A stretch of DNA of 62,310 nucleotides, filler included, from Stramenopiles sp. TOSAG23-3 (Eukaryota): the NCBI GenBank assembly GCA_900128585.1. It is 19 parts of 19 records of this genome, joined end to end, with 100 filler letters (N's around TTAATTAATTAA, not from the genome) between each part and the next. Parts side by side here need not be neighbours in the genome. Positions count along the whole stretch, not along the records: positions 9,900 to 13,093 come from LT644366.1; 18 more parts are not named here. One strand, written 5' to 3'. Within the stretch, counting starts at the first letter, position 1. The number at the start of each line of letters is the position of its first letter. The notes below the pieces were generated by a model that had not been told where the DNA came from, made no database searches, and saw only the letters and a list, made by a program, of their open reading frames with translations. A program made the position numbers and the translations under genes. Below are positions 2-55,758 of this stretch, piece by piece.

Positions 2-3000
2 GACAACACCCTCGCAGTAGAAGGATCGCGCAACGTACAAAATTTAATAATGAAAATTACTGGCATTCAAAGTGGGGCTGCTTCAAGGTTATCATCTTTA
101 ATTTTAGAAATAGATGCCATGCTTCAAGGACTGAAGAAGCGACACGAGGACGAGAGAAGATCAGTCCTGCTTGAAGGGGAGGGGAAGCAAAAGTTCACCA
201 ATGATGCTATAAAGCACGTGCGCGTCCTTCTTCAACAAGCAAGGGAAGAGAAAGACCAAGTGCAAACCATGCTGAATGAATCTAAAAATGAATTGGTCGG
301 TCTCCAAAAAGAGCTCATTCACGAACGAACGAAAGTCAGCATGAAGACTATGTTACAAAAAAGCGGGATAAAAAAGATGACGAAGCAAAATCAAATGAAA
401 TCAGATTTGTCAAAGTTGAAAAATGCATTAAAGGAAATTGATGAGCTAAAAGAACAAAACGCGAAATTAAAATTGAAGTTAAACTCCCAAACGGACTACG
501 ACGAACTAAAAACTGCCCTGAACGTTTCCCAGGCAAATGTAAAGGTACAATTGAAAAAGCTAGAGACGTTGCAAATCGAATTCGATAAAAGCAGAAAAGA
601 AAATCTAGAGCTAGTCGGGTCTGTTGATGCTCTTGAGCGGGGCTATGCACATGCAAAAGAGTCAACAGCTGCCCAGCAAGTTCAAATTGACAACTTACTC
701 CGAAAACAAAAATCGTTGGTCAATCAAGCCAAGGATTCTGAGGGTAAAAAGCTTGAGGCACTCGAGAACGATTTTGCGAAGTCTAAGAAAAAGAATGCCC
801 AAAAACTTCAGGAATTGCATGTTGAAACGAACAGTAGCCTTGAACGGGCAGAAAATGCAAAAGCAGAGGCCTTGTTGCAACTTAAAAAGCTACAAATAGA
901 GAAACTTGAACTTCGCGATGAAAACACTGCATTAAAGAAGAAGCTGCGAGATTCAAAAAACAAACTGCAGCTTTTTAGTACCAAAGCAAAACGGGGGAAC
1001 AATGTGATGGACGATGTTCAAAAACATGGGGCAGAGCAAGACGCAAGGAAGATTAAAGACCTTTCCGAACAACTGAAAGTGACAGAGACAAATTTGAAAT
1101 CGTTTCGACGGAGCTCTGTCGAACTGCAACGAAGTCAATTTGACACAAAAACAATTTTGGAAGAAAACCAAACTATGTCGGCACGAATTCACACCACTGA
1201 GACAATGCTCCTAAATGCACAAGAACAACTGAAGCTCGTAACTTCGCAAAAAGAGGAAATGCAAAGGCAGTTGCATGTAGCAGAATCCCAAATTACATTA
1301 TGGAAAAATAGGTATGAGCTATTCAAGTTCCAAAATGAGGCAAATGCTGTCGTAGCAGAAATGCAAAAAAAACAGCTGAAGCAAGTTTTGTCAACAGAGC
1401 AAAACAAACTCAAAATTGCTGCGAAAAAAATCATAGATACAAAGTCGTCGAATGACATAGAGGTTGAGATTCGTGCGGCCTCAAATACTATGATTTCCGA
1501 CCTAAAAGAGGAAGTTAAAAAACTAGAAATTATGCTAGAGTTGGAAAAGAAAGGGCGTCGAGATGATGCTATTAAACACACCATAACGCTTGCGTCCCGC
1601 GTCCAAGATGCTGTCAAGAACTTGGTTCCTCCGGGCATTGACAGAGCCGTAAGCCCATTCTTCTCCCTAAACGATGATGATTTATACATTCCACGCTCTC
1701 CTCTGCCGACTCCCTCTGACGACGAAGATCCCGATTCTTGCAATTGCGAAGATGACCAGAAAGACTTGGACGAAACGAGCAAAGTCTCACGAGATAGAAC
1801 AGAATCGTCGGCTTCGTCTTCCTCTCCATCTCGTATGTGGTCTCCTGGTTCGAATAGAGGGAACGTTAGGAATCTTAGAGATCGCACAACATCTGTGAGT
1901 GGATTAAATACACGGAGTGTCACAGATCGAGACTTGGGGCTGTATCGGTGCAAAGACAAATCGTTTAGGCCGTTTTGGTCAAATGCCCAGTTACATGGTG
2001 CTCCGTATAAAAATTTTGGTCTGCCCGTTCCTGCTGCGAGATTGAACCCTCCCAGATGCTTTTCTCCGTCTAACGTATCGGTAAGTGAGGATTCCGATGA
2101 CGACAGTTCCAGTGAAAATCCAAATGCTGAGGATAACGATATTGCATTCAATGTGCCTGGTGATCTGTTCAGCACAGTTACAAAAACGGTTGGGAAGAAA
2201 GTTTTATTAGAAACGAGAGGGACCCAGGCAGATGACCAAGACGTTCGGGGCGGCGAAACAATTGCAATGCTCGAGCAACGAGTCATAGAACTACAGCAAA
2301 TCGTCTACCTAATGGATTCGCTAGTGCCCCAGAAAAGGTTTTATGTAACAAAGGCAGGGTTGGGCTCCAACAAGCACTCAAGAATACGGTCATATAGCAA
2401 ACCAAACGTTGCACCTCCTCCGTTAGACGCTTGTAAAGATTTGCTCTGGCTCCAAAACCGGGAACTATCTGGGCAACGAAAAATGCAGACAGTCGATAAC
2501 TGGGTATATTTCATGACCGCTCTCAAATGGCTGCGAATTAGGAACCGCTTAAAACATCGTTACACAAGCGTAGCGTCGCTTGTGTCAAAGAAAAGGCATT
2601 ATTGCCAAACCGTGTTTTCCCTTCGCAGAAAAGTGTATACGCAGCAGCGACAAAAGCAGTGGAAGCAGACGCTCGATACTTTAGTGGCATTGAGCAACTA
2701 TTGCAATGGAAAAAGCAGCGCAAACGTCAAGAAAGCTCCACTTGCCCTCCCGTTCAGCAACGAAGATGCCAATGATAACCCATGCGTACAGCCGCAAAGG
2801 GTCCAGGCGATATTGCCGTTTCTACCTAAAAATATGTTCAGAATGACTTCAAACCAACAAGTTCAGATTTTGACGGAAGCTCTGAACTATGCTATTAGCG
2901 ACAAGATAAAAGAACCTACAGAGGGGGGGGGGGTATCGGGCGAGTGTTCTGGCTCTGTTTCTGTCACAAACACCAACGCGCTTCGGCCTTTAAACACAGT

Positions 3001-3202
3001 GAAAACACAGAGCACTCCATACGTACAAAGGAAAGTTGCCGAAATGAACGAAACAATTGCACGAAAAATCAGCGCGAATAGACCGTCCACTTCCTCGGAT
3101 TCATCGAGAAAGCGTTCGTCGCTTAGCCACCAGAAGCACGAGGCCCCGCGTATGCCCACAAGCCTGCGGCCAAAAACGTCCGCCGCTCCCAGCAGAAATG
3201 CC
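2..3202 (+). CDS. Large coiled-coil protein of unknown function, partial at both ends
   Basis: Frame open from base 2 to the contig end. About 500 aa of K/E/L/Q heptad-rich sequence, then Ser/Asp-rich disordered region. Confidence 0.75.
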
Positions 3203-9277: not shown

Positions 9278-9901
9278 GAACGTTTTGTTTTTGTTTGGAA
9301 AATGTGTGGAATATAATAAAAACATATTTTTTGTTTTAAAAAAATAAAATACACAAAGTAGTAGTTTTTTCCGAAAAACAAATACAAAACTTTTCCGAAT
9401 TACGAACTACGAAGTACACTGTTCAAACCAGAGAAACGAAAAGGGTGTACCTATTACCAGGGCTAAGATAGTTGTTGAAACTAAATGAAATTTGGAACAA
9501 CCAGACATCGACAAAAGAGGAAGAAGAGAAGATGGATTAAAGCCTCATCATTCGAATTAAATAAAAAAATAGTTTAAATATATATAATAATAATAATAAT
9601 AATTATAATAATTAATAGTCTAATATTATTATAATATACAAATATGATTATTATGATAGGGAATGGTTTGAAAGAGCTGTTCATTTTTTTTTAACTTATT
9701 TTTTTAGTTTCTGTTTCATTCCTTCGATACTAATTTGTAATCAATGCTATGTACCTGTTAATCATGATAAAACTAAAAATGCGCAAAACCGCTGCTTTGN
9801 NNNNNNNNNNNNNNNNNNNNNNNNNNNNNNNNNNNNNNNNNNNTTAATTAATTAANNNNNNNNNNNNNNNNNNNNNNNNNNNNNNNNNNNNNNNNNNNNT
9901 A

Positions 9902-10144
9902 TTCGTTCTTCTTTTTTCTTCTTCTTCTTCTTCTTTTTTTTCTTCTTTTTTTTCTTCTTTTTTTTTCTTCTTTTTTTTCTTCTTTTTTTTTCTTCTTTTT
10001 TTTTTTCAAAAATTATTATGATGATGAATTTCTAATTTCAAATTGTACTGCACTCCCAGTAACTCTTCTGAACAGTGCAACGAATTCAGTTACTTTTGAT
10101 CACAATATGGAAGCCAATTACAGAACCCTAAAAATCGAATTAGT
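9902..10144 (+). repeat. Left terminal inverted repeat
   Basis: TTCGTTCTTC.. pyrimidine tract, then ..CAAATTGTACTGCACTCCCAGTAACTCTTCTGAACAGTGCAACG..AATCGAATTAGT. Reverse complement of the right end apart from a few substitutions and small indels. Confidence 0.93.
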
Positions 10145-10169
10145 TTAAGCGACAATCAAGAAAAAAAAT

Positions 10170-11261
10170 ATGGATAATATAATTGGTAACCCACAACCAA
10201 GAAGGTGGGGGGCAAGAGTTGAGTATACCGCAGTGCGGACAATGCTGCTGGAAGGGTGGACCCCAGCGCAAATGCACGATCGGAACAAAATGATCAGTGA
10301 GGATTTTTTTAGGCGTTTATTGTCCCATTGGCGGCTTCACGAAGAGCTCCCATATGAGACGCGAATTTGGGCGTCAAACTTCAAAACAGTCCAGCAAGGG
10401 ATGGCTCCTGGTGTGGTTCTAGTGCTGAAGGATTTGGCGCTGACACATCCTGACTGGTATCTGTACGAATACTGCAAGTGGCTGTTCAACCATGGGCATG
10501 GGTCATATCACCCCTCTACTGTAAGTAGACAGCTGCACAAACAAGGGCTCAGTTTAGCCGTATTAGATGACATTGCACGACAGAGGGATGCGGAAGAACG
10601 AGCAAGATTTCTTGATGAAATTCACTCTGTCAAATATGTTGAACAGTTTGTCTGTATTGATGAAACACAAAGAGACAGAAATGCAAGTAGAAGGCGAAGG
10701 GGGTGGGGCACAAAGGGCAAAATTCATTCACTTGTTCGACGCTGGCATGGATACCGGCATGATTTGCTGTACACAATGATTGGCGCTGTTGATGTGAATG
10801 GATTTATTCCAGAGTGTTGTCAGCTGGTGGCGAAACCAGAGACAGTTAATGCCGCGAAATTCACTCAATATATACAGGAATACATTTGCCCGGTTATTGG
10901 TAATTATCTGGAAGGAGAGCCACGAAGCGTGGTAACTATGGACAATGCAACTGTGCACAACCCTTTGGTTGTTGAAGCTTTAATTAATGATGCCGGCGGG
11001 CGTGTGATTTGGACGCCGCGTTATTCGCCGGATTTACACCCTATAGAAACGTGTTTCCACCAGTACAAAGCTTGTTTGAAGCGGTTGCACCACGAGGATG
11101 CATACTTAGATGTGTTTAAAGCACACCAGGATGCGATGAATAGCGTCTCGCGTGAAAACATGTTGAATTATTTTTCTTCACAGTGGGGAACACAGACACA
11201 AAATTACACAGAGAGTGAAGACTTACTTTTGATGGCCGTACTGTTGCTCGACGACGATTAA
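10170..11261 (+). CDS. DD34E transposase (IS630/Tc1-like)
   Basis: FVCIDET (D1), VVTMDNATVH (D2), PRYSPDLHPIE (E), with 34 residues between D2 and E. HTH-like PDWYLYEY..HPSTVSRQL upstream. Uninterrupted 363 aa. Confidence 0.92.
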   Translation: MDNIIGNPQPRRWGARVEYTAVRTMLLEGWTPAQMHDRNKMISEDFFRRLLSHWRLHEELPYETRIWASNFKTVQQGMAPGVVLVLKDLALTHPDWYLYEYCKWLFNHGHGSYHPSTVSRQLHKQGLSLAVLDDIARQRDAEERARFLDEIHSVKYVEQFVCIDETQRDRNASRRRRGWGTKGKIHSLVRRWHGYRHDLLYTMIGAVDVNGFIPECCQLVAKPETVNAAKFTQYIQEYICPVIGNYLEGEPRSVVTMDNATVHNPLVVEALINDAGGRVIWTPRYSPDLHPIETCFHQYKACLKRLHHEDAYLDVFKAHQDAMNSVSRENMLNYFSSQWGTQTQNYTESEDLLLMAVLLLDDD

Positions 11262-11420
11262 GACATTCTAATAATGTAATTGTAAACAGATTTAATAATC
11301 TAAAGTATATTTTAAGTGTACTCTTTTAATTTTTTCTCTCAAAAAATTTACTAAGAGAAAAGGCTCTGCGTGCTTTCACGGCACGGGAAACACTGCTCTT
11401 CTTTGGAACACATTACTGTT

Positions 11421-12758
11421 TCACAAGCAACTCTCCATTAGGCGTTTCTTTCCAGCTTTGAATTCGTCTTCTTCAAGTAGCCCTTCATTGTGCATCGTTC
11501 TTAATTTTTCCAGCTCCTGGCGAAAATGGTCTACCGCAGAAAACCTTGTTTCTGTGGTTCTACACTCTATTGTGCCAGTTGCAGAATATGAAGTGCCGCC
11601 TAATCCTGCGCTTTGAACCCCGCCTGATCCTGCGCTTTGAACCGGATTTCCAGCGGTCTCCTGAGGGACCTTCTTTTTGTCTATAAGTTGTTTGAACAAT
11701 TGCTTCACCGATGGACTTTTTTCTGCTTCCCTTTTTCGTTTGTTTGACGATTTTACGGATGGTGGAAACAAGGCTTTTGGGTTGAGAGGCGGATGAGACC
11801 CTCGTTCAACATGGAGATCTGCGTTCATCAAAAATGCGTCGTCTGGAACATATTCATTGTCTTGTAAAACATTCAATCGACCATTTAGTTGTTTCAAAGA
11901 TTCAATATCCAATTTCAATATATACAAGTTCAAAAATTCTGCGGTGAAGCCATGAAACAATGCACTGTCTGGGTCGCTGTATTTTTTCAACAATAGATCC
12001 TTTATTTGACGTTTTACTGATATCTTTTCGTTTATACCTTTGACTTCTTTAGCTTCCTTCGTTGCCGGACTCTGCAGGCCGTCCCCGTTCTTTTCAAAAT
12101 CCTTTTTTGGTGCACCAAAGGCTACAAGATGAACACCACTTTTCAGACTGTGCAATTGTGTAACATGCGATACAACTTTCCAATGATTGTTTGACACGAA
12201 CATATACAAACGGCAATCAATATAAGACAGCGACTCACTGCCTTTGTGAGAATTTCGCAAAATTTTTGTCAGGTCTTCAAAAGAAACCGTGCTGTCCAAA
12301 ATAATCTCATTAGAAGCAACGGGCACCATATCGGACGAAAGAGCAAATGCACCGCTGCCCTTCTTCTTTACTCTGTGCACATCTGACACTAATAACAATT
12401 TTCGTACCAAATCCTGTATTCTTTTTTTATCAACAATGCATATAATCGGGAAAGGTGCTGTTGACGGCTTGTTGGCGAAATAATCCATAGTTAAACGGCA
12501 TTCAGTGGGATTTTTCTTCTTGCCATCCTTCTTCAAAACAAAAAGACTGTTTGCACAAAATGAGTACTTTTCTAGCTCATCTGCAGTGAAAAATTCGTGC
12601 TGTTTCCAGAGGATTTCTAGACACTGGTCTAGTTCTTCTATCGTATTGAATTTTAAATCTACTGTCTTTGCAAACACACTGTGCTTCAATTTCATCCGTG
12701 GTCCCTTTCTTGGTTGCACTGTTACCTGTACCGTGCGCACACTACGTGTAGAGGGCAT
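11421..12758 (-). CDS. Transposon-encoded orphan protein with C-terminal SHOCT-like motif
   Basis: Intact ~445-aa ORF (first ATG 12758; track start 12776 is GTG) inside the TIRs. Ends ELEKLRTMHNEGLLEEDEFKAGKKRLM. Basic NLS-like KRKRE. Confidence 0.8.
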   Translation of the reverse strand: MPSTRSVRTVQVTVQPRKGPRMKLKHSVFAKTVDLKFNTIEELDQCLEILWKQHEFFTADELEKYSFCANSLFVLKKDGKKKNPTECRLTMDYFANKPSTAPFPIICIVDKKRIQDLVRKLLLVSDVHRVKKKGSGAFALSSDMVPVASNEIILDSTVSFEDLTKILRNSHKGSESLSYIDCRLYMFVSNNHWKVVSHVTQLHSLKSGVHLVAFGAPKKDFEKNGDGLQSPATKEAKEVKGINEKISVKRQIKDLLLKKYSDPDSALFHGFTAEFLNLYILKLDIESLKQLNGRLNVLQDNEYVPDDAFLMNADLHVERGSHPPLNPKALFPPSVKSSNKRKREAEKSPSVKQLFKQLIDKKKVPQETAGNPVQSAGSGGVQSAGLGGTSYSATGTIECRTTETRFSAVDHFRQELEKLRTMHNEGLLEEDEFKAGKKRLMESCL

Positions 12759-12864
12759 CTTGTTGACTGATGTCACCTGGTTGGTTTTAGAGTTTTTTCG
12801 AAATAAGATAAGAATGTGTTGATTAAGCGTTTGTATGAAGTGTTTTTTGAAGACTCTTGTTTAC

Positions 12865-13091
12865 ACTAATTCGATTTTTAGGGTTCTGTAATTGGCTTCC
12901 ATATTGTGATCAAAATTAACTGAATTCGTTGCACTGTTCAGAAGAGTTACTGGGAGTGCAGTACAATTTGAAATTCATCATAATAATAATTTTTGAAAAA
13001 AAAAAAAAGAAGAAAAAAAAAAGAAGAAAAAAAAAGAAGAAAAAAAAGAAGAAAAAAAAGAAGAAGAAGAAGAAGAAAAAAGAAGAACGAA
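12865..13091 (-). repeat. Right terminal inverted repeat
   Basis: Reverse complement of 9902-10144, followed by TA at 13092-13093. Confidence 0.93.
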
Positions 13092-13193
13092 TANNNNNNN
13101 NNNNNNNNNNNNNNNNNNNNNNNNNNNNNNNNNNNNNTTAATTAATTAANNNNNNNNNNNNNNNNNNNNNNNNNNNNNNNNNNNNNNNNNNNN

Positions 13194-23464: not shown

Positions 23465-25516
23465 TCATTGAAACCACCTGCCCTTCCCCCCTTGCATGAC
23501 GGCCATTTCGCTTGGTAAAACGTGGCGGTACTCTTTGGCCCGTTTGGAAAGCTCCATCGTTCGTTCCGAAAACCTATCGTGCGCGGCGTCGAAGCACGCG
23601 GGTCCCCCCTCGATCTTGAAGCGGTGCAACAGGGTGAGCATCTCGGCCAGGTACGCATCGTCCCGTTCTACCTCTATTATTCGAACGCCACGGGTTGCGT
23701 TGACATACACGTACCACCCTCGCTTCGCGTCCGCGCACAGCATTTCCATCTGCAGCTGGGGGATGTGGTACGGGGGGATCTCTTCAGACATCTTCTTGTC
23801 CACAACCACGTAGCGGCCGCCGCCGCCCCTCCCCTGGGAACCACCGCCGCCCCGGCCCCGGCCCCGACCGCGGCCGCGGCCGCGGCCTCCTCTGGAGCGC
23901 CAGCCGCCGCCGCCCCCGTTGTCCGAGAACGGGCACATGCACTTGACTTCAATGATCTCCCTCCCCCCGTTTTCTCGGACCAAGACGCCGTCGGGCGACG
24001 CGCCGATCAGCGGCAGGTCGACCACGTCGACCGTCCCGGGGAGCGCCTTCCCCAGCGTCTCCAGGAGCAGGCAGCCGGCTTCTTCCATGACGGCGCCCGG
24101 GAACGTGTTCATCGCTGCCAGAATCCCCACCCCTTCCTGGATCCCGCCCCACGCCATTGCGAGCTCCCCGCCGTGCTTGAACCGGGACTGGATCGGCCGG
24201 TTGGCCCTCAGCGGGGGGCACTTTGCCTTTACCCTCCAGGTCCCATCCTTCTTGGCCGCATCGGCCTCCCACCACGCGTTCTCCGCCCCGGACGGCTCCA
24301 GCGCCCGCTTGCTGCCGAACTTATCGTCCACCCCGTCCTTCGGGATGTCCACGGCGAAGAGCACGCGCTTGTCCCCGTAGCGCGCGGAGGCGAGCTGGAA
24401 GAACCCCGCCACGCTCGGGTGGGGGACCATTTCCCAGTGCTGCTCTCGCGCGCGCGCGTACGGCTGGAGAACGATTTTCCCGCCCCCATCCGCCCAGTGA
24501 GGCTGGGGCTCCACCGTCGCGACGAAACCGTTCAGCGTCGAAACCAACTTGACAGCGTTGGGCCCGACCGCTTCGACCTTCCACGACTTCCCGTTGGAGG
24601 GGCAGCTGTTCGTGTACAGGACGAGCCGGGTCCCTGGGCGCTTGTCCTCGTGGAACACGTGGACCCCCAGCGTCGGCTGGCCCATGCTGACCAGGCACCG
24701 TCCCCCCCCCGTCGGTTGGTGGGCGTCTACGTTCTCCTCGTCCAGTTTCCAGTACGTGCTCGGCAACGGGGCCGGTTGCGGTCCGTCGCCGCCGTGGGCC
24801 CGGACCTTCGCGACGTTCGCTTCGAAGTCCCTCGCGCACTGCGCTTCGGGCAGCGCCAGCAGGTCCTGCCCAATCCAGCCCATCTCTGCCAGGTAGTCGT
24901 ACGAGGCCGGGGCGGCCGTTTTCGTGATGTGGTCGTGCGCGGACCTCGCCGCCTTGGGGCCCGCGCGGTACTTGGGGACCTGCATCCTCGCGCTCCGGCC
25001 ATTAGCCGTCTCAAAGAGGCCGAGGGCGGGGGCCAGGTGCCGCGTGGTCAGGCGCCCGGCGTGCAAGTCGATGCTTGCCTGCGGGGAGCCCTGGGAGAAC
25101 TGGGAGGCCCAGCGCGGCCCCAGTCTTTGGCTCACCGCGGACGCCTTCGGGAGCGGGCGAAACATCGGGTGCCGTTCCAGAAGCTCATCCTGGACCCAGT
25201 GGAAGGTCACATTTGGGCGGTCTCCCGTCGTCCCCCCGTGCTTTCCCATGACGCGCTGTGCCTCGCTCTCGACGGTCTTCTGGGTGGGCAGTTGGTACTG
25301 GTCTCGTTGCACCGCCACCGACGCCGTGGCACCTTTCGGGCTCGCAGGGCCGGCCAGGTCAAAGGGGGAGAGAAGGAGCAGGCCCTGCTCCATGCCCGTA
25401 AACTTGTCGTCACCCTCGGCAAAGCTGGTGTCGGGGCTGATCGTGTCGTTTCCACTGTCCTCCGCCGCCAGGGACAGTTTCTCCAGGGCGGCAGGGTCTA
25501 ACAAAAGGGACGCCAT
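23465..25516 (-). CDS. YqaJ/lambda-exonuclease-fold (PD-(D/E)xK) protein with large insertion
   Basis: QGSPQ..GRLTT, MAWGGIQE, IGASPDG, IIEVKC, YHIPQLQMEM. RGG insert after EVKC. Confidence 0.8.
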   Translation of the reverse strand: MASLLLDPAALEKLSLAAEDSGNDTISPDTSFAEGDDKFTGMEQGLLLLSPFDLAGPASPKGATASVAVQRDQYQLPTQKTVESEAQRVMGKHGGTTGDRPNVTFHWVQDELLERHPMFRPLPKASAVSQRLGPRWASQFSQGSPQASIDLHAGRLTTRHLAPALGLFETANGRSARMQVPKYRAGPKAARSAHDHITKTAAPASYDYLAEMGWIGQDLLALPEAQCARDFEANVAKVRAHGGDGPQPAPLPSTYWKLDEENVDAHQPTGGGRCLVSMGQPTLGVHVFHEDKRPGTRLVLYTNSCPSNGKSWKVEAVGPNAVKLVSTLNGFVATVEPQPHWADGGGKIVLQPYARAREQHWEMVPHPSVAGFFQLASARYGDKRVLFAVDIPKDGVDDKFGSKRALEPSGAENAWWEADAAKKDGTWRVKAKCPPLRANRPIQSRFKHGGELAMAWGGIQEGVGILAAMNTFPGAVMEEAGCLLLETLGKALPGTVDVVDLPLIGASPDGVLVRENGGREIIEVKCMCPFSDNGGGGGWRSRGGRGRGRGRGRGRGGGGSQGRGGGGRYVVVDKKMSEEIPPYHIPQLQMEMLCADAKRGWYVYVNATRGVRIIEVERDDAYLAEMLTLLHRFKIEGGPACFDAAHDRFSERTMELSKRAKEYRHVLPSEMAVMQGGKGRWFQ

Positions 25517-26349: not shown

Positions 26350-28002
26350 AAAAAGAAAAAGTTTTGGGAAGAAGAATACGCAGAAGATGAGAACGCCAGG
26401 ACCAACAAGCAGTTAGTTGATCGGTACGATTCGGTTTCAAAAACGTTAAGAATGAGAATGGAGCTTGCAAAATCAACATTGATTACTGAAAGTCAGCGTA
26501 CCCTCGAGCTTTCCTCCATAGCAGTTTTGGACGACATCAACGAAGTCACGTCCTTACTAAAAAAAATCGAGGCTCGCCTTCCGGGCGTTCGGGAACTACT
26601 GATCAATGGCCCTCCCCAGAAGCGAAAGCCTAAGATGAAATTGGCCCGGGAGAAATACAACGAGAAAGCCCGGGCAAAGCGAAAGTGGTCCCCCGAAATA
26701 GAAAGAAAAAGATTAGAAGAGAGAAACCTGACACCTTTGGTGCTGCCATTGCCGACAAAGTACAACGCTCCGCCATTAACAAAGTTGGAGCAGAAGAAAA
26801 TTGAGGAGGATATATCGCAGAGGGTGGAAGCTATGAGACAAGATCTCATCAAACGAAAGAAGAAAGCCAAAATCAGGCACGCAAAACGGGAGAAGATGTG
26901 GGCACGGCAACGATTAGAAGGAGCAAATTTCAATAAAGACCGACTGCAAACAGCAACAGAGAGGAGGATAAAGGCCGAAAAATTGACGGCGAAAACTCTG
27001 GCTCGATTTAACCCTCACCCATTGGTTAGTTACCTGTTTCGTAGACTTGGCACGCAAGAGCAGGATCGTTTGATACGAATCGCACTGGTTGCTGCTGGAG
27101 AAGCGGTGCCACGGAACGACTTTGACCGCAGGGATGTTCTCGAGCGTTGGTTAGAGGCGGTAGGGTTCAAACGGAGAGATGCACCAGTACCTCCTAGAAC
27201 AATCGATTCAGTAGAGCGCTACATCTCAAATTTAAAGCGGAGTCACCAAATGCTAAACTTTGACGACACTGATTTAAGTGACATGAAAAGTAAGACCCAG
27301 GTGACAACGGGGCTCGGGCGGACAATACTTGCACCGGTAGACACCAGTCCTATCAAAAGTAAAAGTCCAAAGGGCTCCAGAAGCAAACGCACGGTCATCT
27401 GGTCACCAGAGTCATCAGGAAGTTACATCGTCGAGAGAGAATCCCCGCAGAGCCCAAAGGTCCGGGTGGACCGTACGACCTTTGGCGGATCCAACACAAT
27501 TGTGACGATTGAAGACGACGATGATCAGTGGCGAAAAGACTACAACAAAGCGCTTCAGAACGCACGGGCCGTTCGAAATAGTTACAAGAAACGGAAAAAG
27601 GTGGAAAAGCGGCCACAGCTATCTCCTATAAAGAAAGCCCCTCTACCCATGGATTTTGACCAACGCGCCGTGCTTAAAAACGAGATTTCACGGCAGGCAA
27701 CGATAGAAACAATGGAGCAAGTTGGTTTTCTATGGGAAGAAGCGGAAGATATGGAGGCTACAGATGAGCGGCCATTTGCCGATGCGCCGAAACGAAGGGC
27801 AAGATCTCATTCTGAATTTAGCCCCGCCTTTCAACAACTGCAGCAACAGGAGTATTTAAAGTATGAAGCTGAGCTAGCAGAAGAGGCAGAGAGAAAGAAG
27901 CGAGAAGAAATTGAAGCAGGTATTAGACCACCAGATGAATTTTCCCAACTTTACAAAGAGCCTGCCAATATCATGGACGCCATAAAAAATGAGTACACAT
28001 AA
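26350..28002 (+). CDS. Basic, coiled-coil-rich hypothetical protein, probably 5' partial
   Basis: 516-aa ORF whose frame stays open back to the contig start. No recognisable domain. Confidence 0.7.
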   Translation, partial: KKKKFWEEEYAEDENARTNKQLVDRYDSVSKTLRMRMELAKSTLITESQRTLELSSIAVLDDINEVTSLLKKIEARLPGVRELLINGPPQKRKPKMKLAREKYNEKARAKRKWSPEIERKRLEERNLTPLVLPLPTKYNAPPLTKLEQKKIEEDISQRVEAMRQDLIKRKKKAKIRHAKREKMWARQRLEGANFNKDRLQTATERRIKAEKLTAKTLARFNPHPLVSYLFRRLGTQEQDRLIRIALVAAGEAVPRNDFDRRDVLERWLEAVGFKRRDAPVPPRTIDSVERYISNLKRSHQMLNFDDTDLSDMKSKTQVTTGLGRTILAPVDTSPIKSKSPKGSRSKRTVIWSPESSGSYIVERESPQSPKVRVDRTTFGGSNTIVTIEDDDDQWRKDYNKALQNARAVRNSYKKRKKVEKRPQLSPIKKAPLPMDFDQRAVLKNEISRQATIETMEQVGFLWEEAEDMEATDERPFADAPKRRARSHSEFSPAFQQLQQQEYLKYEAELAEEAERKKREEIEAGIRPPDEFSQLYKEPANIMDAIKNEYT

Positions 28003-29633: not shown

Positions 29634-30500
29634 GTGCCACCACGTTCTCGTGACCTCCCATAGCAGCCTGATGCATCGGTGTCCAACCATCATTGTTTCG
29701 AACCATCACATCCGCATTGTACTCCTTTGCAAGCAGTACCACCACGTTCTCGTGACCTCCCATAGCAGCCTGATGCATCGGTGTCCAACCATCATTGTCT
29801 CGAACCATCACATCCGCATTGTACTCCTTTGCAAGCAGTGCCACCACGTTCTCGTGACCTCCCGCAGCGGCAAAATGCATCGGTGTTACACCCTTATTGT
29901 CTCGAACCATCACATCCGCATTGTACTCCTTTGCAAGCAGTACCACCACGTTCTCGTGACCTCCCGCAGCAGCATGATGCATCGGTGTCGAACCACCATA
30001 CTTCTGTGCAAGCAGTGAAAGCTCGTTCTCGTCACATATCGCTGCACCATGAAGTATAGGTATTGTCCAGCCACCATTGTTTCGAATTATCACATCTAAA
30101 TTGTACTCATTTGCATTTACATCCACATTGTACTCCTTTGCAAGCAGTGTCACCACGTTTTCGTGACCTTTCTGAGCGGCAAGATGCATCGGTGTCGAAC
30201 CATGGTTGTCTCGAACCATCACATCCGCATTGTACTCCTTTGCAAGCAGTGCCACCACCTCCTCGTGACCGTGGGAAGCGGCACAATGCATCGGTGTCCA
30301 ACCAACATTATTTCGAACCATCACATCGACATTGTACTCCTTTGCAAGCAGTGCCACCACGTTCTCGTGACCTTCCCCAGCGGCAAAATGCATCGGTGTC
30401 CAACCATCATTGTCTCGAACCATCACATCCGCATTGTACTCCCCTACAAGCATCTTTGTCATATTTACACTGGCCTCATCACCACAATATGCTAGCCCAT
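29634..30500 (-). repeat. Tandem 102-bp ankyrin-coding units, highly similar at DNA level
   Basis: Unit starts at 29634, 29736, 29838, 29940 and 30147, 30249, 30351, with an irregular unit between the two runs. Confidence 0.9.
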
Positions 30501-32814
30501 GGAGCAAAGTGGTTGTCCTTTCCATCCCCTGTTGTGAGCTCTTTCCCAGCACAACATGCCCCAGCCACGCCGATAATCTTGCCTTCTTGAGATTTTTTAA
30601 GACCTCTGAATGCATCTCTCGAAGCTTCTCCTGTTCAAACCCGTACGTGCCATTTAATATCTCACACAGCGCGCTCTTTCGTGCGATTCGACCGGTTTCC
30701 TTCCAAACGCTTGTCAATGATCGGTCCATCCCTTCCTTCCCAGCCGCGTGGACCAGTATTGTCGTCACCACTGCACTGCACTCCTCTGCCAGCACCCGAT
30801 CCTCGAGCGCTTTCCTCCGCACGAAGACATGCTGCAAATTGTGCAGCCAAATCCTGTCCTTACCTTTCCCGCGTATTTCCAACAGTGACAGGGTTTCAAA
30901 CTTACCACAAACTTCACTAACATTCTTGACACCACCCCACAGGTGCTCCAACGTCTCCATGCGGACCTCCGTGTCGACTGGGAAAACAGCAAGCATTAAA
31001 TACCAAAGCCGCACTTTTGGCTTCATCCATTTAGGATCAATCCCAGCCGCAAACGCTAACTCCACGCATTTTGTATTATCTTCATCGTACTCCTCTGGCT
31101 CAGTTTCATCGGCTTGGTCGAAAAAGTCGTCTTCGTCCTCGTCGTTTTTTTTTTGTGTGATTAACTCATATCCCTCGTTCTCTCGTTCCATCAGACAATC
31201 GCGAATTTCCCTCCACCCGTTTTTTCGCGCTCGGCTGCCAACAACTTTAAGTGCCACGGGCAAGTGTCCCACAAGCCTCGCAGCTTCCTTCGCATACTGT
31301 AAATCATCTGTGCCCTCGCGAAATTCGCCAGCATGGGCTTTAAGCAGTTCCAGTGCCGAGGTTTCGTCCAGGCGTTTGACATTGAACGATTGGCATCGCC
31401 AACTCCCCTTTCGTTTAGGCAGACAATTCCCGTTTCGTGTTGTAATTAGGAGCTGCAAATGTTTGTGGTGCTTTGTTGCCTCCTGAACCCAATCCACAAC
31501 ACCCTTCCCTATTCTTCCCTTCTTCCATACATCATCGACAACGATCAGCATGGGACAGTCTGCTTTGGCAAGGAAGAACTCTTCAAATACCTCTATGATT
31601 TCTTTGTCAGAAATATCTTCCGCCCGTTTTCCAGTGCTTTCACCCATTCCCCTCTCCGAACCACCGTTTAAATGAACAACTGACGCTTTCCTTTTCCAAT
31701 CTTTTCCCATTGTACATCTGGCCAGTTTTCGCCAAATGTCTCTTTTTGTAGCCTCTTGGCCCGCTTCAATCCAGAAACGTTTGTCGCCAAACTTTTCCAC
31801 AACACGCGGGTGCCGTACAATACTCCCTGCAAGGACGGACTTGCCGACGCCCCCCGCGCCACGGAACCCAACCAGGCCGACCGACCGAGTGGTCCCTTTG
31901 ACTACCGCCTGTAGAATGTTCTCCGCCAAGGCAGCGTGCAAATTTTCGCAGAAGGTCTCTGGTAGGGCTCGAGCGTGTGCCAGCCGCAATGGCCCCGATT
32001 CGAGCACTCTCCAAGAGTTGTTTTCAAGGGAAGGACGAAAGTCGTTATGTCGACATTCTAGCGCCGTGATTCTCTTGTTGTGAGTGAATCGCAGTCCCGC
32101 AATGTCAACCTTGTTTCGTTGAACTTGATCCTCCACCTTATCAAAATTTGATGCAAACTCCTGAAGCGCTTTCATCGTCACTGCGGTGAGCGCGTTTTGC
32201 TCCACCACTAACTTGCCATCGGGAAGCCCCTTCGTCTTAATTTCTTCCAGCGACTTTGGGGTTTTTCCAGTCTTTGCATACTTCACAATTCCGGGAATAG
32301 CTTCTCCGAAAAGAGAAAAAATGTCTTGTGCCATGGGCCCGGCATCCGGAGTGCCATCTTTCCACGTGTAAATGGACTGTTTCAGTTTTCGAAGCATTGG
32401 TAGTATGCCTTTGGGTAATTCTTTTTCAATTACCTTCAGGCGTTCATCGGAGAAGCACCTTAAATGTTCTGTGATAAGAGTATCGCAGGTTGCAGTTCCC
32501 GCTACATTTATATTTTCGAATTCCTTGGGTTCACCCTCAAATAAAGAATTCGCCACTTCGGCTAATGCAGGATTTCCGAACGTCGCACTATCGCCATCTA
32601 TATGTTGGCTGGAAGTTTCTGTCTCGGGATCGCCTACTGTCAATTCATCAAAGGGTTCACCGGAAAAGGCTTCATCAAGACTGTTGTTGCTAGTGGCCTG
32701 TTGGCCAAAGCAGCGTCGCTTCGCAGGACGATACGGATGAGATGGTTCGAGACAATGATGGTTGTACACTGATACATTCTGCCGCTGAGGGAGGTCACGA
32801 GGAGGTGGTGGCAC
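29634..32814 (-). CDS. NB-ARC (STAND) ATPase with C-terminal ankyrin repeats; 3' partial, start uncertain
   Basis: Walker A GAGGVGKS, Walker B LIVVDDVW, LLITTR, GHLPVAL (GLPL), LAVFP, WLHNLQH (MHD-like), followed by at least 7 GWTPMHxAAxxGHENVVALL repeats. Confidence 0.9.
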
Positions 32815-32921
32815 TACTTNNNNNNNNNNNNNNNNNNNNNNNNNNNNNNNNNNNNNNNNNNNNTTAATTAATTAANNNNNNNNNNNNNNNNNNNNNNNNN
32901 NNNNNNNNNNNNNNNNNNNGG

Positions 32922-37442: not shown

Positions 37443-39078
37443 GATGAGACACCTACTTTTGTTTATGTACGCAGGGGTGCATTATGTACTCTTGTGTCTT
37501 GCTGCGGTGGCTACCTCCAGTGCCAAAGCAGCACGGGGTCCTAAACTGTTGTCTGTGTCTTCCATTTTGTCCGACGTGCTAGAACGTCGCGTATCTACTG
37601 ATTTTGAAAACGCATCTGTGATCAGTGAAAACTCGTACTCCGTCCTTCGTTTAGAGCTAACGTACAGTGAGCCAATTTACTTTCACCAGCGGAAAAATGC
37701 GAGCGACGAGAACGTATTGGCCTTAGGAGACCACGGCGTGCTTGACCTGGCAGGGTTGGTCGATGTCGAGTGCGAAGGCAAAGTGTACAAGTTTGTTCAT
37801 GAGCATCATTTTTCTGGTAGTAAGTATGGAATGTTTGATTTTGGGGCGGCCAGCAGCAAAAGGGCCCAAGCTGGAGTAGTGCCCACCATTCGAAACACAA
37901 AGTCGACCCCCACAGAATGCACCTCAAACAATTTTTGCCTCCTTTTGCACGTTCCGTCAACAACGGCGGATTCGTTCGGGTGCACCGTGGGGTTTTCGCG
38001 ACATCCACGAAACGGGACTTCTAGGTTTTTCTTGGGGAACTTTCAGGGCGACGCCATAGCTTCGAATGACCTACGGCTGCCCAATGTGCTGCGAGATTCC
38101 CTCAAAGAAAGGGCTACCACCTATGCTGTGGAGCCCAAGTTTTTGTCCGAACGGCCAGGCCGAACTGGCAACGGTAGTCGCGGGGGCGCTCGGCCCAAGG
38201 CGGAGCCCAAGGCTGACGGACTCCAAAAGGGCCAGTGCAACCTGGTAGATAGCATTTTGCACAACAAGTCGGCAGCGATTCAGAAGGCGTTCCAGAACGG
38301 CGCGGTGCTCAATGACGGTTCCGTCATGTCTGCGATGGAAGTGCATGCCGCGTTGGACTCGCACTTACGGGACCATGCGGGAATGATGGCCTCCACCATC
38401 AACACTGTTTTGGATGGTGCCGAACCGCTAATAGTGCAGGACATCATGGCGAACACCAACTCCAGATCGGCCACGAGCATGGCGAGGTATTTCAACGCCG
38501 AGATGCCCGAAATAATCGGGGCTGAAGTTCCCACTGTAGTGTCACAAATGTTGGACTTGGCCTTGACGTATAATCTGACAAATATCCTCACGGACTCTAT
38601 TACGGCCGCCGTTGTTCCGAGACTCTCGTCCGATATTTTTCGTGGTGTTGTGATCCCAATCGAGCAAGAGGTGAAGAAAGAGGCGGTGCGAAGGGTTCCC
38701 CGAGTCGTGTCCAATGTTGTCGAAGCGACGACATCGGCGCGGATTTCCAAGGCGGTCCCACGTCTGCTTGAAAGGTCACTTTCCACAAAACTCACGTACA
38801 CGTTAACGCGTAGTATCACGCATGCATTGGTCCCAACACTTGCTGGCTCCCTCTCGCACTCGAGAGATCAAAATTATTATTGCTGGGCGTGTTATGATCA
38901 CAAAGCGCACTGCAACAAATGCCACTATTCTGCCCAATCATCGTATTACAACGATTACTACAGCGATTACTACAGCGATTACTACGGCGATTACTACGGC
39001 GACTACTACGCGGATTCGCTTCGTGCAATAGAGTACCAGCACATAAAAGAAGAACGGCACCCGATCCCACCAGCGTAG
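37443..39078 (+). CDS. Putative secreted protein with Cys cluster and (DYYx)n Tyr-rich tail
   Basis: Hydrophobic N-terminus (VLLCLAAVATSSAKA). C-terminal YYCWACYDHKAHCNKCHY..YYNDYYSDYYSDYYGDYYGDYYAD. Start could be 37443 or the next ATG. Confidence 0.75.
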
Positions 39079-42771: not shown

Positions 42772-44014
42772 CCATTGCGATAGTTTCCAAGATGAAATTT
42801 AATCTTTCTGAATGGGCTTCAACGGCAGCTCTGTGTTTTTGCCTTTGCTCTTCCAAAAGCTTTTGCCTTCTCGCCGAGGCGGCAATAACCCTGTTCTCTC
42901 GCATTTCAGAATTCTGAGTAGCTCGCAATTGCTTTTCCATTTGAATCTCCTTGTCAATTTGTACTCTTCTATTGGCCGCTCGTGCGATCCTTCCTCTGAT
43001 GACGTCAGCTTGAGCTCTGCAAATTTCCCACAACTGTTCGTCGTACTCGTCTTTCAGACGGTGACCTCTCATTTCCAAGTAAACAGCCTTCTTGACCCTT
43101 GCTTCAATAATTTGTTTGTACTCCAGCACCAGCATTTCTCTCTTTTGTGCTGCTTTTTCCTGCTTCTCTAACGCTTTTACGTGGCGCTCTGCCATTTCTT
43201 GCTCCTTTTTCGATGCAATCGTCAATAGATGGTACGCTTTCAGCTCTTGTTTTTCTTCCATGCGAAATTTACGTTCAGCATCCTGGTCTTCTCTGTTTTT
43301 TTTATGCTTTGCATGTAGTGCTTCCTGCTTTATTCTGCGCCGAAGGTTCACCTCTTCAACGATTTTTTTCATTTTTTCAGTATTGCTGTCTCTTCGGTTT
43401 TGCACATCGTCTGCGTTCCTAGACTTGTGACCGATTGCAGTAGGAACATAAGCGCATGATGGGGCTGTCAAGGGTCTTCTTGCCCGAGGCGATGGGGAAG
43501 ACACTCCGCTACCTCCAGAGCGATCAACCATGCTGTACAGGGTAATCGGTTTAACTTCTGCAGGGGGCCTGGGGAGCTGTTCGTTAAACCGAATAATATA
43601 TTTTCTGGCAAGTTTTCTGTATTTCTCTTCTTCAAAATCTGCAGATTGTTTCTTGGCTAGCTCTATTCTAAACTTTATGTGCGCATAATGGGCATCGTTG
43701 TCAGCTTTCTTTTTCTCATACACTTCCCTTCTTTTTCTCTCGCACTCTTTAATTTTTCCAATACGCTGCGCTTCAAATCTTGCATTTCTCTTGTTCTTCT
43801 CTTCTTGAATTTGTTTCAAGCGGTGACCCCTATTTTTTTTTATTTGATGCAACTTTGAGTTCGTCGATGCCTTTTTACGACCAGCATCAATGAGAACCTT
43901 TTCGTCCATGTGTTGCTTTCTGAGATAAATCTCCTGGGCACCATACATTTTTTTTAATCCATGGATTGTCCTGGGCCATTCAGCAAAGCCATAGGGAGGT
44001 TTAATTTTTGTCAT
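42772..44014 (-). CDS. Charged coiled-coil hypothetical protein, 3' partial
   Basis: More than 410 aa open, K/R/E-rich, with an RPLTAP motif. Confidence 0.7.
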
Positions 44015-52607: not shown

Positions 52608-52686
52608 GTGAGCACAACAAGGAGATGAAATCAAATGGCTACGTACAGTCGATAAACAGGGATTTTGATATGAAAGGAAAGAAACC
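52608..52686 (+). repeat. 79-bp exact inverted copy of 55697-55775 at the contig end
   Basis: Direct comparison. The same MKSNGYVQSINRDFDMKGKKP peptide starts ORFs at both ends. Confidence 0.95.
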
Positions 52687-53907
52687 CAAAGCGACGTGGA
52701 GATTCACGTCGACACCATCTTCGTGGTGTCCAAGTCGCTTCCGGAACTGCCGTTCTCGGTGGTCGAAGCCTCCAAACCAGGGTCCATGCGCTTCGACGAA
52801 GGGGAGCTGTTGGCGTCCAAAGACGGCGACAAGAAAGAGGAGGACGATTCGGTAGTGAAAGTAGGGCTTTCCACGCGGCTGAACTACCGCTGGATTGACG
52901 TCCGCACCCCCGCCCACCAAAGCATCCTCAGGATTCAATCCCATGTTTGCAACTTGTTCCGCCAGTTTCTGTACGAGCGTGACTTCGTAGAGGTGCACAC
53001 CCCCAAGCTGAATGGCGGCGCGTCCGAGGGCGGTGCGAACTGCTTTACCCTTGACTACTTTGGCCAACAGGGGTGCTTGGCACAGTCCCCTCAGCTCTAC
53101 AAGCAGATCACCAGCGCGTGCTCCGGGATGACCCGCGTGTTCGAGGTCGGGCCTGTGTTTCGCGCGGAAAACTCGCACACGCACCGTCACTTGTGCGAAT
53201 TCACCGGGCTGGACATGGAAATGGAAATCAAGGAGCACTACTTTGAAGTGCTGGAAGTATTTTCGGATTTGTTCATTCACATCTTCGAAGGCATTGAGAA
53301 GCGCTGCAAGCACGAGCTTAACCTCGTTGCCCAAATGTACCCGATCGAACCGTTCAAGTTCTTGAAGCCCTCCCTTCGCATCACCTTCGCGGAGGGCTGC
53401 GCGCTGCTGAAGGAGCACGGGATCTCCGACTACGAGCGTGACGTGCTAGGCATTACCCCGCAAGGTCCGTTGGACGATCTGTCGACCCCGAATGAAAAAT
53501 TGCTGGGCAGAATTGTCAAAGAGAAGTACGGAACGGACTTTTTCATGATGGACGAGTACCCATTGGCTGTCAGGCCCTTTTACACGATGCCAAACCCGAA
53601 GAACCCTGCGTTGAGCAATTCGTACGATTTCTTTATGCGCGGCGAGGAAATCATGAGCGGGGCCCAGCGTGTCCACGACGCAGAGATGCTCATCAAACGA
53701 TGCAAGACAGCAGGCTCCCACGGGGACCCGATGACGGACGAGGCGATAAACGCCATGAAAGGTTACATTGATTCGTTTCGTCACGGTGCATTGCCACACG
53801 GCGGGGGCGGTGTTGGGTTGGAGCGCGTTGTTATGCTTTATCTGGGCTTGAAGAACATTAGGTTGGCGTCCTTCTTCCCACGCGACCCCAAGCGCATTAC
53901 CCCATAA
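52684..53907 (+). CDS. DARS1: Cytosolic aspartyl-tRNA synthetase, 5' partial
   Basis: TQSDVEIHV, TRLNYRWIDVRT, ASEGGA, LAQSPQLYKQ, FRAENSHTHRHLCEF, PHGGGGVGLER, FPRDPKRITP. Confidence 0.96.
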   Translation, partial: TQSDVEIHVDTIFVVSKSLPELPFSVVEASKPGSMRFDEGELLASKDGDKKEEDDSVVKVGLSTRLNYRWIDVRTPAHQSILRIQSHVCNLFRQFLYERDFVEVHTPKLNGGASEGGANCFTLDYFGQQGCLAQSPQLYKQITSACSGMTRVFEVGPVFRAENSHTHRHLCEFTGLDMEMEIKEHYFEVLEVFSDLFIHIFEGIEKRCKHELNLVAQMYPIEPFKFLKPSLRITFAEGCALLKEHGISDYERDVLGITPQGPLDDLSTPNEKLLGRIVKEKYGTDFFMMDEYPLAVRPFYTMPNPKNPALSNSYDFFMRGEEIMSGAQRVHDAEMLIKRCKTAGSHGDPMTDEAINAMKGYIDSFRHGALPHGGGGVGLERVVMLYLGLKNIRLASFFPRDPKRITP

Positions 53908-54303
53908 AGAAAGGGGGCGTTTTATTTTAAAAGTTTAAAAAACAAGAAAATTGGCTGTTATTTAAGTAATTAAAATTAATGTACTGCGAACTGAAATCTA
54001 TCTTTTGGTCTTTACTAAAATCGATATACCCTCGTCTCACTTAGTATTTGACTATCATTCTCAGATGTACTCCATTTGTGATCTGAAATTAAAAGTTTAA
54101 AACCAAAAAAGTGGCTGTGTTATTTTATACAAAAAGAGTAAAATTAATATTTTAAGTTTTAAAACACTGAAGTGCAAAAGTATGTGTGAGGGCAAATTAG
54201 ACTTACGCGAGACTTTTCGAAACTCTTTTACTAACTGCGTATCATATTACTCGTTGGTTTGCCTGAGAAATGATGGGCGGTGTCGAGTTTCTTGATACGA
54301 GAT

Positions 54304-55758
54304 TCAACCGTAATTGTTCGACTTCAGCGTTTTCTTTGATTTCTCAAGCTTCAGGAGTATCCACTCGATCAATCTGGCCACTCTAATGTTTGTTGCTACC
54401 ATCTTGCCAAACTCATCGTACACAACGTTCAGCAAAGATTTATCGAACTGCCCACCTTGTTCAATTTGTTTCTTGACCAATTCCATCAGGGCAAGGTCGT
54501 CTTCTTTCGGCTTTCCTTCCAAATCGCAAGCGAAGAACACAAAATCTCTGTACATCGACCGGGCCTCTTGCGCGAAGAAATGCTCTTCAAGCTTACCGTA
54601 AATTTCGTCGCGGCGGGCAGACCACACGTTTCGCCAGCCTTTCCCATCTGGGCTATGTCGCGTTCGGACGGGGGAATTATGATTGTCAAGGGAATCAGCA
54701 GGTGGATACCCCCCAAAGCCCCAGCCGTCAAAATCTTTGATGACGTGCTCTGCAATCTCCATGTGATCCAGGTCCCTTTCGGCCAGCGTGGACGCTAGGC
54801 TTTCTTCTTTGCCAGTAGACACTGAGACAAACGAGTCCATCCAAGTTTCAACCTTTCGTTGCGCCTTACGGCGGGTTTCTTGCGCATGCACTTCGGGATT
54901 CTCGCTTCTTCGGCGACGACGGCGCATGATCTCTTTGTACACACCGTCGGAGTCATCCTCCCTCGTGGCATCTTGCGTCCGCTTCAGCTCCAGCAACCTC
55001 ATTCGCTCCGTGTGCAGCGCAGCAGTTTTCGCGTGCGGCCCTGCATTTGCTGTATACATGTGGATTCGCTTTGCATCCTCTTTGTTAATTTGTATGTCGA
55101 TCTCACCGTTTGTTTTGCTTTTGATCTCATACACCATGTCCTCTAAATTCTTTACCTGCCTTGCTGCTTTTGTCGGGCTGTTGCCAGACTGCGTCGACCT
55201 GGTGGTCGAAGGGGGGCGCGGCTCCAAGTGTAAAAACGGCCGGAAGTGCAAAAGGTGACCGTTCAACGTGTGGATACCCGCATCGAAAAATTGTCCCCGC
55301 TGCACTTTACCGACAACAGTATCACTCTCGCTAACAACCCGTTTTGGAAACGTTGAGATGGTCAAACGCGCGGACCTAGACTTTATGTTGTCCGGGGCTT
55401 CACCGGCTACAAGCTCTTCAATAGTATGGGGGGCTTTGTTGGATCTACGATTGGGGGATCGTTTGCCCGACCTCCTTTTCAGCTTCTCGCGAAGCATTGG
55501 GTCCATCTGTTCAACGCCTTGCTCCTTCTCCAGCTCTCTTACCAGCAAAAAATGTTTCCCGACCGTGTTCATGTTGCCTACCGGAATGTAAGGCTTCGCT
55601 TGAGGGGAGAATACTCCTCTGCCTTTTGGCAGAATAGGTCGGTTTCTTTTCGCTAGCCTTTTCATAAAACGTTTTGCACCGTTCCTTTTCTTATTCGGTT
55701 TCTTTCCTTTCATATCAAAATCCCTGTTTATCGACTGTACGTAGCCATTTGATTTCAT
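54304..55758 (-). CDS. Hypothetical protein, possibly 5' partial
   Basis: 484-aa ORF with frame open to the contig edge. No domain recognised. Confidence 0.7.
   Translation of the reverse strand: MKSNGYVQSINRDFDMKGKKPNKKRNGAKRFMKRLAKRNRPILPKGRGVFSPQAKPYIPVGNMNTVGKHFLLVRELEKEQGVEQMDPMLREKLKRRSGKRSPNRRSNKAPHTIEELVAGEAPDNIKSRSARLTISTFPKRVVSESDTVVGKVQRGQFFDAGIHTLNGHLLHFRPFLHLEPRPPSTTRSTQSGNSPTKAARQVKNLEDMVYEIKSKTNGEIDIQINKEDAKRIHMYTANAGPHAKTAALHTERMRLLELKRTQDATREDDSDGVYKEIMRRRRRRSENPEVHAQETRRKAQRKVETWMDSFVSVSTGKEESLASTLAERDLDHMEIAEHVIKDFDGWGFGGYPPADSLDNHNSPVRTRHSPDGKGWRNVWSARRDEIYGKLEEHFFAQEARSMYRDFVFFACDLEGKPKEDDLALMELVKKQIEQGGQFDKSLLNVVYDEFGKMVATNIRVARLIEWILLKLEKSKKTLKSNNYG

Follow-up and report, generated by a model that had tools for sequence, protein, structure and literature searches.

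The element and its two genes

The window analysed here, a stretch of 62,310 nucleotides, is a string of 19 unrelated contigs, each of about 3.2 kb, joined by N spacers, so that contigs adjoining one another in it are not genomic context. The contig at 9900-13093 is a single 3.2-kb DD34E (IS630/Tc1) transposon, with long inverted ends and two long ORFs only. ORF1 (10170..11261, plus strand) encodes a 363-aa DD34E transposase with an HTH region, and ORF2 (11421..12758, minus strand) a protein of 445 aa, with near-identical proteins in three other records. The two ORFs are convergent, tail to tail, and the 159 nt between their stop codons (11262..11420) are AT-rich and presumably form a shared termination region. 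A stop-free run of the size of ORF2 has a probability of about 4e-14 at this composition, and ORF2 is a real gene, the second gene of the transposon.

The transposase is recognised by Pfam DDE_3 (E=6e-20, 72 bits against a cut-off of 28.6) and HTH_33 (E=8e-5), and by the NCBIfam IS630 model at 96.2 bits, just under the cut-off of 100. Its catalytic triad is D164, D258 and E293, with 34 residues between the last two, and is invariant in all 14 aligned relatives. Both the triad spacing and the terminal inverted repeats (TIRs) place the element in the ITm DD34E type; it departs from the usual single-gene ITm architecture by the presence of a second conserved gene. The nearest named transposase, from the oomycete Aphanomyces euteiches, is 39% identical, and searches of viral contigs with the transposase and of prokaryote genomes with the transposase alignment give no loci. 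In most transposases of the clade the C-terminus is a hydrophobic stretch, in many cases with basic residues after it (window 11225-11261, alignment A3), which is unusual for a soluble transposase. The stop codon at 11259 is a sense codon in sequencing runs X3 and X4, and the protein P0040 is 6 residues longer.

The left inverted end (9900..10166, plus strand) has 267 nt, comprising an outer T/C-rich simple sequence and a complex core at 10034-10166, and the contig itself starts at 9900; the right end is at 12843..13093 (minus strand). The two ends are 89.9% alike over 267 nt, and their complex cores 93% over 133 nt. Among the four sequencing runs examined of the 21 listed, run X3, from a different study, has the element interior as one 2783-nt contig with 13 differences from the window, together with a 166-nt contig over 10005-10142 at a depth of 78 against 37 for the interior. 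This twofold depth of the left end shows that the repeats are real, the AT-rich outer part included. As a candidate target-site duplication, the dinucleotide TA stands at both repeat tips, which are the contig start and end; on either side another TA comes before the complex core. About 100 nt of T/C simple repeat within the inverted ends (9900-10033 and 12976-13093) resembles host intergenic DNA, and the candidate ends of the element are the outer T/C repeat or the TA preceding the complex core. None of the 39 loci of the transposase scan described below has a match to the TIR. Six elements have both of their ends in view, and in all six each of the two start codons lies at 0-98 nt from the TIR inner edge. 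Judging by the marine sequencing runs, the host is taken to be a marine protist. The contigs of RNA run X8 cover 10021-10843 only and not ORF2, though contigs of this kind cannot show absence.

A possibly small number of copies and the position of the start codon may be read as signs of a self-limiting regulator, which would bind the TIR promoters or the transposase, damp activity and hold the copy number low: two small assemblies each contain the interior as an unbroken contig of 2.78 kb, which agrees with one or a few identical copies, and a TIR-proximal start would couple the expression of ORF2 to that of the transposase. Such a regulator is nevertheless improbable in our judgement, for a repressor of its own element has less cause to evolve fast or to swap its tail.

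Several other contigs of the window carry features of their own. At 52608-55775, inverted ends of 82 nt (98.8%) enclose a tRNA synthetase of class II and, convergent to it, an ORF of 484 aa that lacks a Pfam match; the inverted repeat includes the start of the 484-aa ORF, and the arrangement could be an amplification chimera. An NB-ARC and ankyrin-repeat protein with 102-nt repeat units is located at 29634-32819, and the opposite end of its contig has a copy of one unit in inverted orientation. Pfam gives no match at E<=0.001 for the long ORFs (414-1051 aa) at 50-3202, 23468-25516, 26452-27999, 37444-39075 and 42773-44014.

Architecture of the ORF2 protein

All parts of ORF2 are given below in order from its N-terminus, on the minus strand. 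Domain 1 (residues ~5-110; 12429..12746) has a strand-strand-helix-strand order and is ubiquitin-like by eye only. Domain 2 (residues ~113-217; 12108..12422), which closes with the 'FG' strand of the family, has a probable beta-grasp (ubiquitin-like) fold, as a lead only. The family signature (residues 212-282; 11913..12125) consists of the FG strand, a linker and a long helix with a Y-x-D and an L/M-F/Y-H motif, and overlaps the helical core (residues ~241-312; 11823..12038), for which no fold match is found. A basic patch, KRKRE, which the original prediction had called NLS-like, is indeed present at residues 340-344 (11727..11741) as a putative nuclear localisation signal; residues 313-365 hold 13 K/R against 5 D/E, and a matching basic patch is retained in the relative P0006. 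A 24-nt tandem duplication (11596..11643; two copies, 96% identical) lies in the Gly/Ser linker before the tail, and the protein ends in a SHOCT-like two-helix tail (residues 415-441; 11436..11516), supported by Pfam and AF2.

AF2 gives a single-sequence model with a mean pLDDT of 35.9, unusable except for the tail. With a 15-row alignment the mean pLDDT is 54.6 and the pTM 0.32; the core at 241-300 reaches 75-88, helices appear at 331-360, and residues 1-230 are mostly below 50. The tail helices (401-424 and 430-444, with conserved G426 and E432) have a pLDDT of about 90 in both runs. Foldseek finds no match at E<=0.001 in the PDB and viral sets, a result that speaks neither for the absence nor for the novelty of a fold, and the best matches of the VIA fold search (Z 7.0 and 6.3) are nearly all tail hairpin. 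Sequence searches add little to this: NCBIfam and PHROGs give only weak tail matches, PDB searches with three profiles nothing below E=0.5, and the ESM Atlas no usable match to the whole protein.

The proposal of a SHOCT tail is borne out in part. Residues 415-440 fit the sequence pattern and the two helices form a C-terminal hairpin with the conserved Gly and Glu of SHOCT, but Pfam SHOCT (PF09851) scores only 19.3 bits (E=0.00096, covering positions 2-28 of the 28 in the model) against a curated cut-off of 27; the tail is SHOCT-like, and not a filed SHOCT member. According to passages of the paper that defines it, SHOCT is likewise C-terminal, with about 30 aa, two helices and a conserved Gly and Glu, and unlike here is mainly bacterial (PMC3581485). 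A role in oligomerisation through this tail is weakened by the same passages, in which the one domain tested shows no self-association and protein or DNA binding is proposed instead (PMC3581485). In the relative P0006, known as a protein alone, a SAM domain (SAM_2, 29 bits against a cut-off of 20.5, E=1.2e-6) takes the place of the hairpin.

As to what ORF2 is not, the original prediction agrees with our searches. Pfam up to E=10 yields no RuvC, zinc-finger or Myb/SANT match, nor a SET or recombinase one, with the proviso that HMMER filters lose most matches above E ~0.1. There is no sign of a Fanzor or of a Harbinger ORF2, and the gene is an accessory one carried by the element. For TnpB/RuvC, Pfam and NCBIfam give no match, with a model that is weak over residues 1-230; the helical core and the tail do not suggest Fanzor/TnpB, the fold searches giving little information. 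As regards Harbinger, the partner is a DDE_3/IS630-type transposase and ORF2 has no Myb/SANT Pfam match.

An internal duplication had also been suggested from two loosely similar segments. The segments are present, at residues 33-47/71-75 and 152-167/183-187, but they are no more alike than chance would make them: as good a score is reached by 1440 of 5000 shuffles locally and by 1668 of 5000 globally, and the profile-profile comparison of domain 1 with domain 2 gives probabilities of 0.3% and 0.05%, with 35 of 60 block shuffles as high. As a sequence fact the duplication is thus unproven, failing every shuffle and profile-profile test; a duplication at the level of structure is possible. Ubiquitin-like folds run strand-strand-helix-strand-strand-helix-strand, and domains 1 and 2 have by eye the secondary-structure order of such folds. 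Searched in the ESM Atlas, residues 105-310 obtain scores of 0.76-0.87, all below 0.9 and thus leads only; 7 of the 10 listed clusters belong to the families GRHL1_C, TDP-43_N, Ubiquitin_GT-1, CIDE-N, PB1, KHA, Par3_N and Rad60-SLD-type, and the ubiquitin-like clusters are 8 if a 20% PB1 row is counted. For domain 1, which is 44% identical to P0008 and has an AF2 pLDDT mostly below 50, the weak model gives only matches of Z ~3, WWE domains among them. Held-out family profiles recover the query with neither domain 1 (132 of 1500 shuffles as high) nor domain 2 alone (257 of 1500), and the literature on a ubiquitin-like plus SAM architecture offers nothing useful among what was found. We treat the two ubiquitin-like domains as a lead only.

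Relatives and co-inheritance with the transposase

ORF2 was thought to be an orphan, and this turns out to be wrong, since relatives exist at 37-44% identity and a wider family shares residues 212-282. A full-library search (1.84 billion representatives) returns four matches, namely one protein with 99% identity, a fragment with 95%, P0008 (44% across residues 1-104) and P0006 (37% across residues 199-423), P0008 being, like P0006, known as a protein alone; metagenome contigs searched with ORF2 give no loci. The scan with the transposase alignment finds 39 loci. Setting aside 15 with less than 450 nt downstream and three (L037-L039) with only a 55-residue match leaves 21, which include the close pairs L002/L003, L006/L009 and L008/L011. 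A convergent partner ORF is present at 18 of the 21 loci, all with at least 450 nt downstream. Twelve of these partners are of one protein family (L002, L003, L004, L006, L009, L015, L016, L019, L023, L024, L025 and L027), while the other six (L001, L007, L008, L010, L011 and L020) are convergent ORFs, 146 aa or longer, for which no link can be detected; L021, L026 and L033 have no convergent partner. The link to the family is by the tail only for L004, L006, L015 and L023, and mainly by the core motif for L025.

The place of the query in this family is supported by profiles from which the query and its close relatives were left out, the first of which ranks it first with 20.3 bits (E=2.5e-5), the best of 2000 shuffles reaching 10.4 bits, and the second again first of 3441 targets with 17.9 bits; the support covers 71 residues (212-282) only. 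P0006 matches the held-out profiles weakly (E=0.15-0.3). In the 44-row transposase tree, six loci with ubiquitin-looking tails form one side of a branch (support 100/99) and five with helical tails one side of another (100/100), while the query groups with P0010 and P0011 (100/100) and is placed only weakly beside the ubiquitin-looking-tail group (87/74). As kin share tail labels, the tree shows inheritance with the transposase and not co-adaptation. Our analysis upholds the view of ORF2 as an accessory gene of the element, which in a wide clade is passed on together with the transposase and whose reading frame selection keeps open. The literature matches listed contain no description of this transposon clade or of the ORF2 family, subscription papers and Repbase being outside this scope, and ORF2 apparently belongs to an undescribed, fast-changing family with exchangeable tail modules.

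Some loci show further features. The ORF2 C-termini of L015, L016, L019, L023, L024 and L027 share a domain of about 95 aa with a ubiquitin-like strand/helix order and no Pfam or PDB sequence match. Breaks of ORF2 in L003, L016, L025 and L027 look by eye like GT-AG introns, and the query has none. In L021 a co-oriented 322-aa ORF without Pfam match (746-1711, plus strand) directly follows the transposase and no convergent one is seen, and in L026 an LYR-family host-type gene (1809-2210, minus strand) occupies the usual place of ORF2 after the transposase.

Selection on ORF2

In the close pair L002/L003 the transposases have a dN/dS of 0.135, and the ORF2s, compared in two parts, 0.97 and 1.66, at similar dS (0.064 versus 0.084 and 0.047); the contrast of N:S between the two genes has p=7e-6, and the protein-level change of ORF2 is about nine times that of the transposase (dN 0.08 versus 0.009). 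This speed bears on the explanation that ORF2 serves the transpososome as a cofactor in integration or target capture and makes direct contact with the transposase, as maize MURB or Harbinger ORF2 would. Strict co-inheritance with the transposase agrees with it, as do a short core conserved among transposases only 31-38% identical and the MuDR-like layout, mudrB being 'apparently required for integration' in the passages of PMC6446971. A protein that changes nine times faster than its supposed partner and swaps tails is however not what one expects of such a subunit; moreover, a Myb/SANT match is absent and ITm transposases normally act alone, as passages of PMC13469147 have it, and on balance we regard the cofactor as unlikely.

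A dN/dS near 1 alone could mean decay. However, across 142 substitutions the L002/L003 ORF2s have acquired no stop codon, where 6.3 are expected and 1 in 1000 neutral simulations is stop-free, and all seven indels are in frame with no frameshift, so that ORF2 is shown to be kept open by selection. In the same pair pN is above pS in the linkers and below it in domains 1 and 2, at small counts. The ratio near 1 comes from one pair only, and relaxed constraint also fits it. About 400 nt of ORF2, including an intron-like stretch, are missing with the frame kept in L002 (1924-1927, against 4134-4540 in L003), so L002 may be a damaged copy. The transposase pair L016/L026, with a dN/dS of 0.84, likewise indicates damaged copies in the set, L026 perhaps decaying. 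Elsewhere, L006/L009 have a dN/dS of 0.16 for the transposase versus 0.46 for ORF2 (tail only), and L019/L024 are 57% identical in the transposase versus 26% in ORF2. Between the window and run X3, the transposase has 0 N and 3 S changes plus the stop change and ORF2 has 4 N and 3 S, which is not distinguishable from neutral (p=0.17).

The same data weigh on the idea of captured cargo, a gene with no transposition role that is kept by host benefit or by hitch-hiking. SAM, SHOCT and ubiquitin-like modules are common among cellular proteins, one pair has a dN/dS near 1 and the partner is missing at 3 of the 21 loci, all of which would be in keeping with cargo. On the other hand, no full-length cellular homologue occurs among the 1.84 billion representatives or among 5.8 billion proteins, queried three times and in two cases with ORF2, the gene's position and its orientation are fixed across the transposase tree, and the frame is intact through the substitutions and indels given above. 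In addition, the GC3 of ORF2 (40%) is near that of the transposase (46%) and unlike that of three host genes (69-91%), with two others at 45-53%. Cargo is therefore very improbable in our opinion.

Taken together, a standing second gene is shown for a clade of DD34E transposons in eukaryotes: it lies tail to tail with the transposase, is passed on along with it, is preserved by selection and evolves much faster. It is very probably a functional gene of the element.

A possible role of ORF2

Judged by sequence comparison, the tail of ORF2 appears to be a module open to exchange: it is SHOCT-like here, a SAM domain takes its place in one close relative protein, and other subclades have other tails. 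The combination of fast change, intact frame and module swapping fits a host-facing role better than that of a fixed subunit of the transposase, and we tentatively favour, at somewhat less than even confidence, a host-facing nuclear helper with an anti-silencing-type role. Promoters in the two long inverted ends would drive both genes, and helper and transposase would thus be expressed together. The ORF2 protein may enter the nucleus via its basic patch, the conserved helical core could make an element-specific contact, either with the element's own DNA or with the transposase, and the tail might bind a host protein or nucleic acid. Proteins often assemble through SAM and ubiquitin-like domains, and the probable ubiquitin-like domains of ORF2 may serve protein-protein assembly. 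The most likely purpose would be to keep the element active against host silencing, as VANC does, and a close alternative would be to steer it to a chromatin type. VANC-like tandem repeats are not found in the non-coding DNA of the element within 10005-12992, the outer simple repeats lying outside the search.

A bolder statement, rather doubtful at present, is that marine protists harbour a broad clade of DD34E transposons, so far undescribed, which encodes a new modular class of counter-silencing or chromatin-targeting proteins. These would combine ubiquitin-like domains in tandem with a helical core that is novel, and in the race of the element with its host their tail would be exchanged between SHOCT-like, SAM, ubiquitin-like and helical forms. 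Expressed from TIR promoters, such proteins would be a convergent equivalent, in the Tc1/IS630 superfamily, of VANC or MURB.

The case is of interest as Tc1/IS630 elements are textbook one-gene transposons, and no function has been assigned to the accessory ORFs known from ciliates and yeast. With its conserved core, rapid turnover and naturally swapped tails, a second gene present throughout a clade is a tractable way into the role of such genes, and an intact compact 3.2-kb copy exists for assay. If ORF2 counters silencing or steers insertion, the superfamily has evolved helper proteins as Mutator elements did, and in uncultured marine protists the tails would be pointers to the silencing machinery of the host.

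Comparison with known multi-gene transposons

Multi-gene ITm elements are already known; they are described here from passages of the papers cited, and the accessory ORFs are compared by description only. The TBE elements of Oxytricha (Tc1/mariner, DD34E) carry additional ORFs whose function is unknown, one of them lying on the opposite strand; conservation is lower in these than in the transposase, and lowest in the 57-kD ORF (PMC4724952, PMC7325037). Unlike TBE, with its three ORFs including a zinc-finger/kinase 57-kD ORF and its telomeric TIR tips, the present element has two ORFs with neither a zinc-finger nor a kinase match, and its TIRs are at least 133 nt long. Tec in Euplotes and Sardine, Thon and Anchois in Paramecium similarly combine an IS630/Tc1-type DDE transposase with hypothetical partner ORFs shared within the lineage, and Tec and Sardine have long TIRs (PMC7325037, PMC3464196). 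These elements contain three to four ORFs, often with a tyrosine recombinase, in contrast to two ORFs and no recombinase match here. Dici1 and Dici2 of Diutina catenulata (ITm, DD34E) are also multi-gene with an accessory CDS lacking homologues, and the accessory CDS of Dici2 is under positive selection, which is read as an arms race (PMC13469147). They differ in being fungal, with three CDSs, TIRs of 8-33 bp, a CDS1 of 143-146 aa and a transposase-derived CDS3 (PMC13469147).

Outside the superfamily, the maize MuDR element resembles ours in its convergent genes mudrA and mudrB, its long TIRs (about 215 bp) with promoters and a second gene whose biochemistry is unknown (PMC3440606, PMC6446971). 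Its transposase is of the Mutator superfamily and makes an 8-11-bp target duplication, and the likeness is an analogy of layout only. The VANC proteins of the Arabidopsis VANDAL elements are likewise of the Mutator superfamily and target tandem repeats in non-coding DNA, none of which is found here, and anti-silencing by ORF2 is putative. Passages of PMC10398659 nevertheless describe them as sequence-specific anti-silencers carried by the element and diversifying, and an element-borne, diversifying accessory protein of this sort is the model for the function that we prefer for ORF2.
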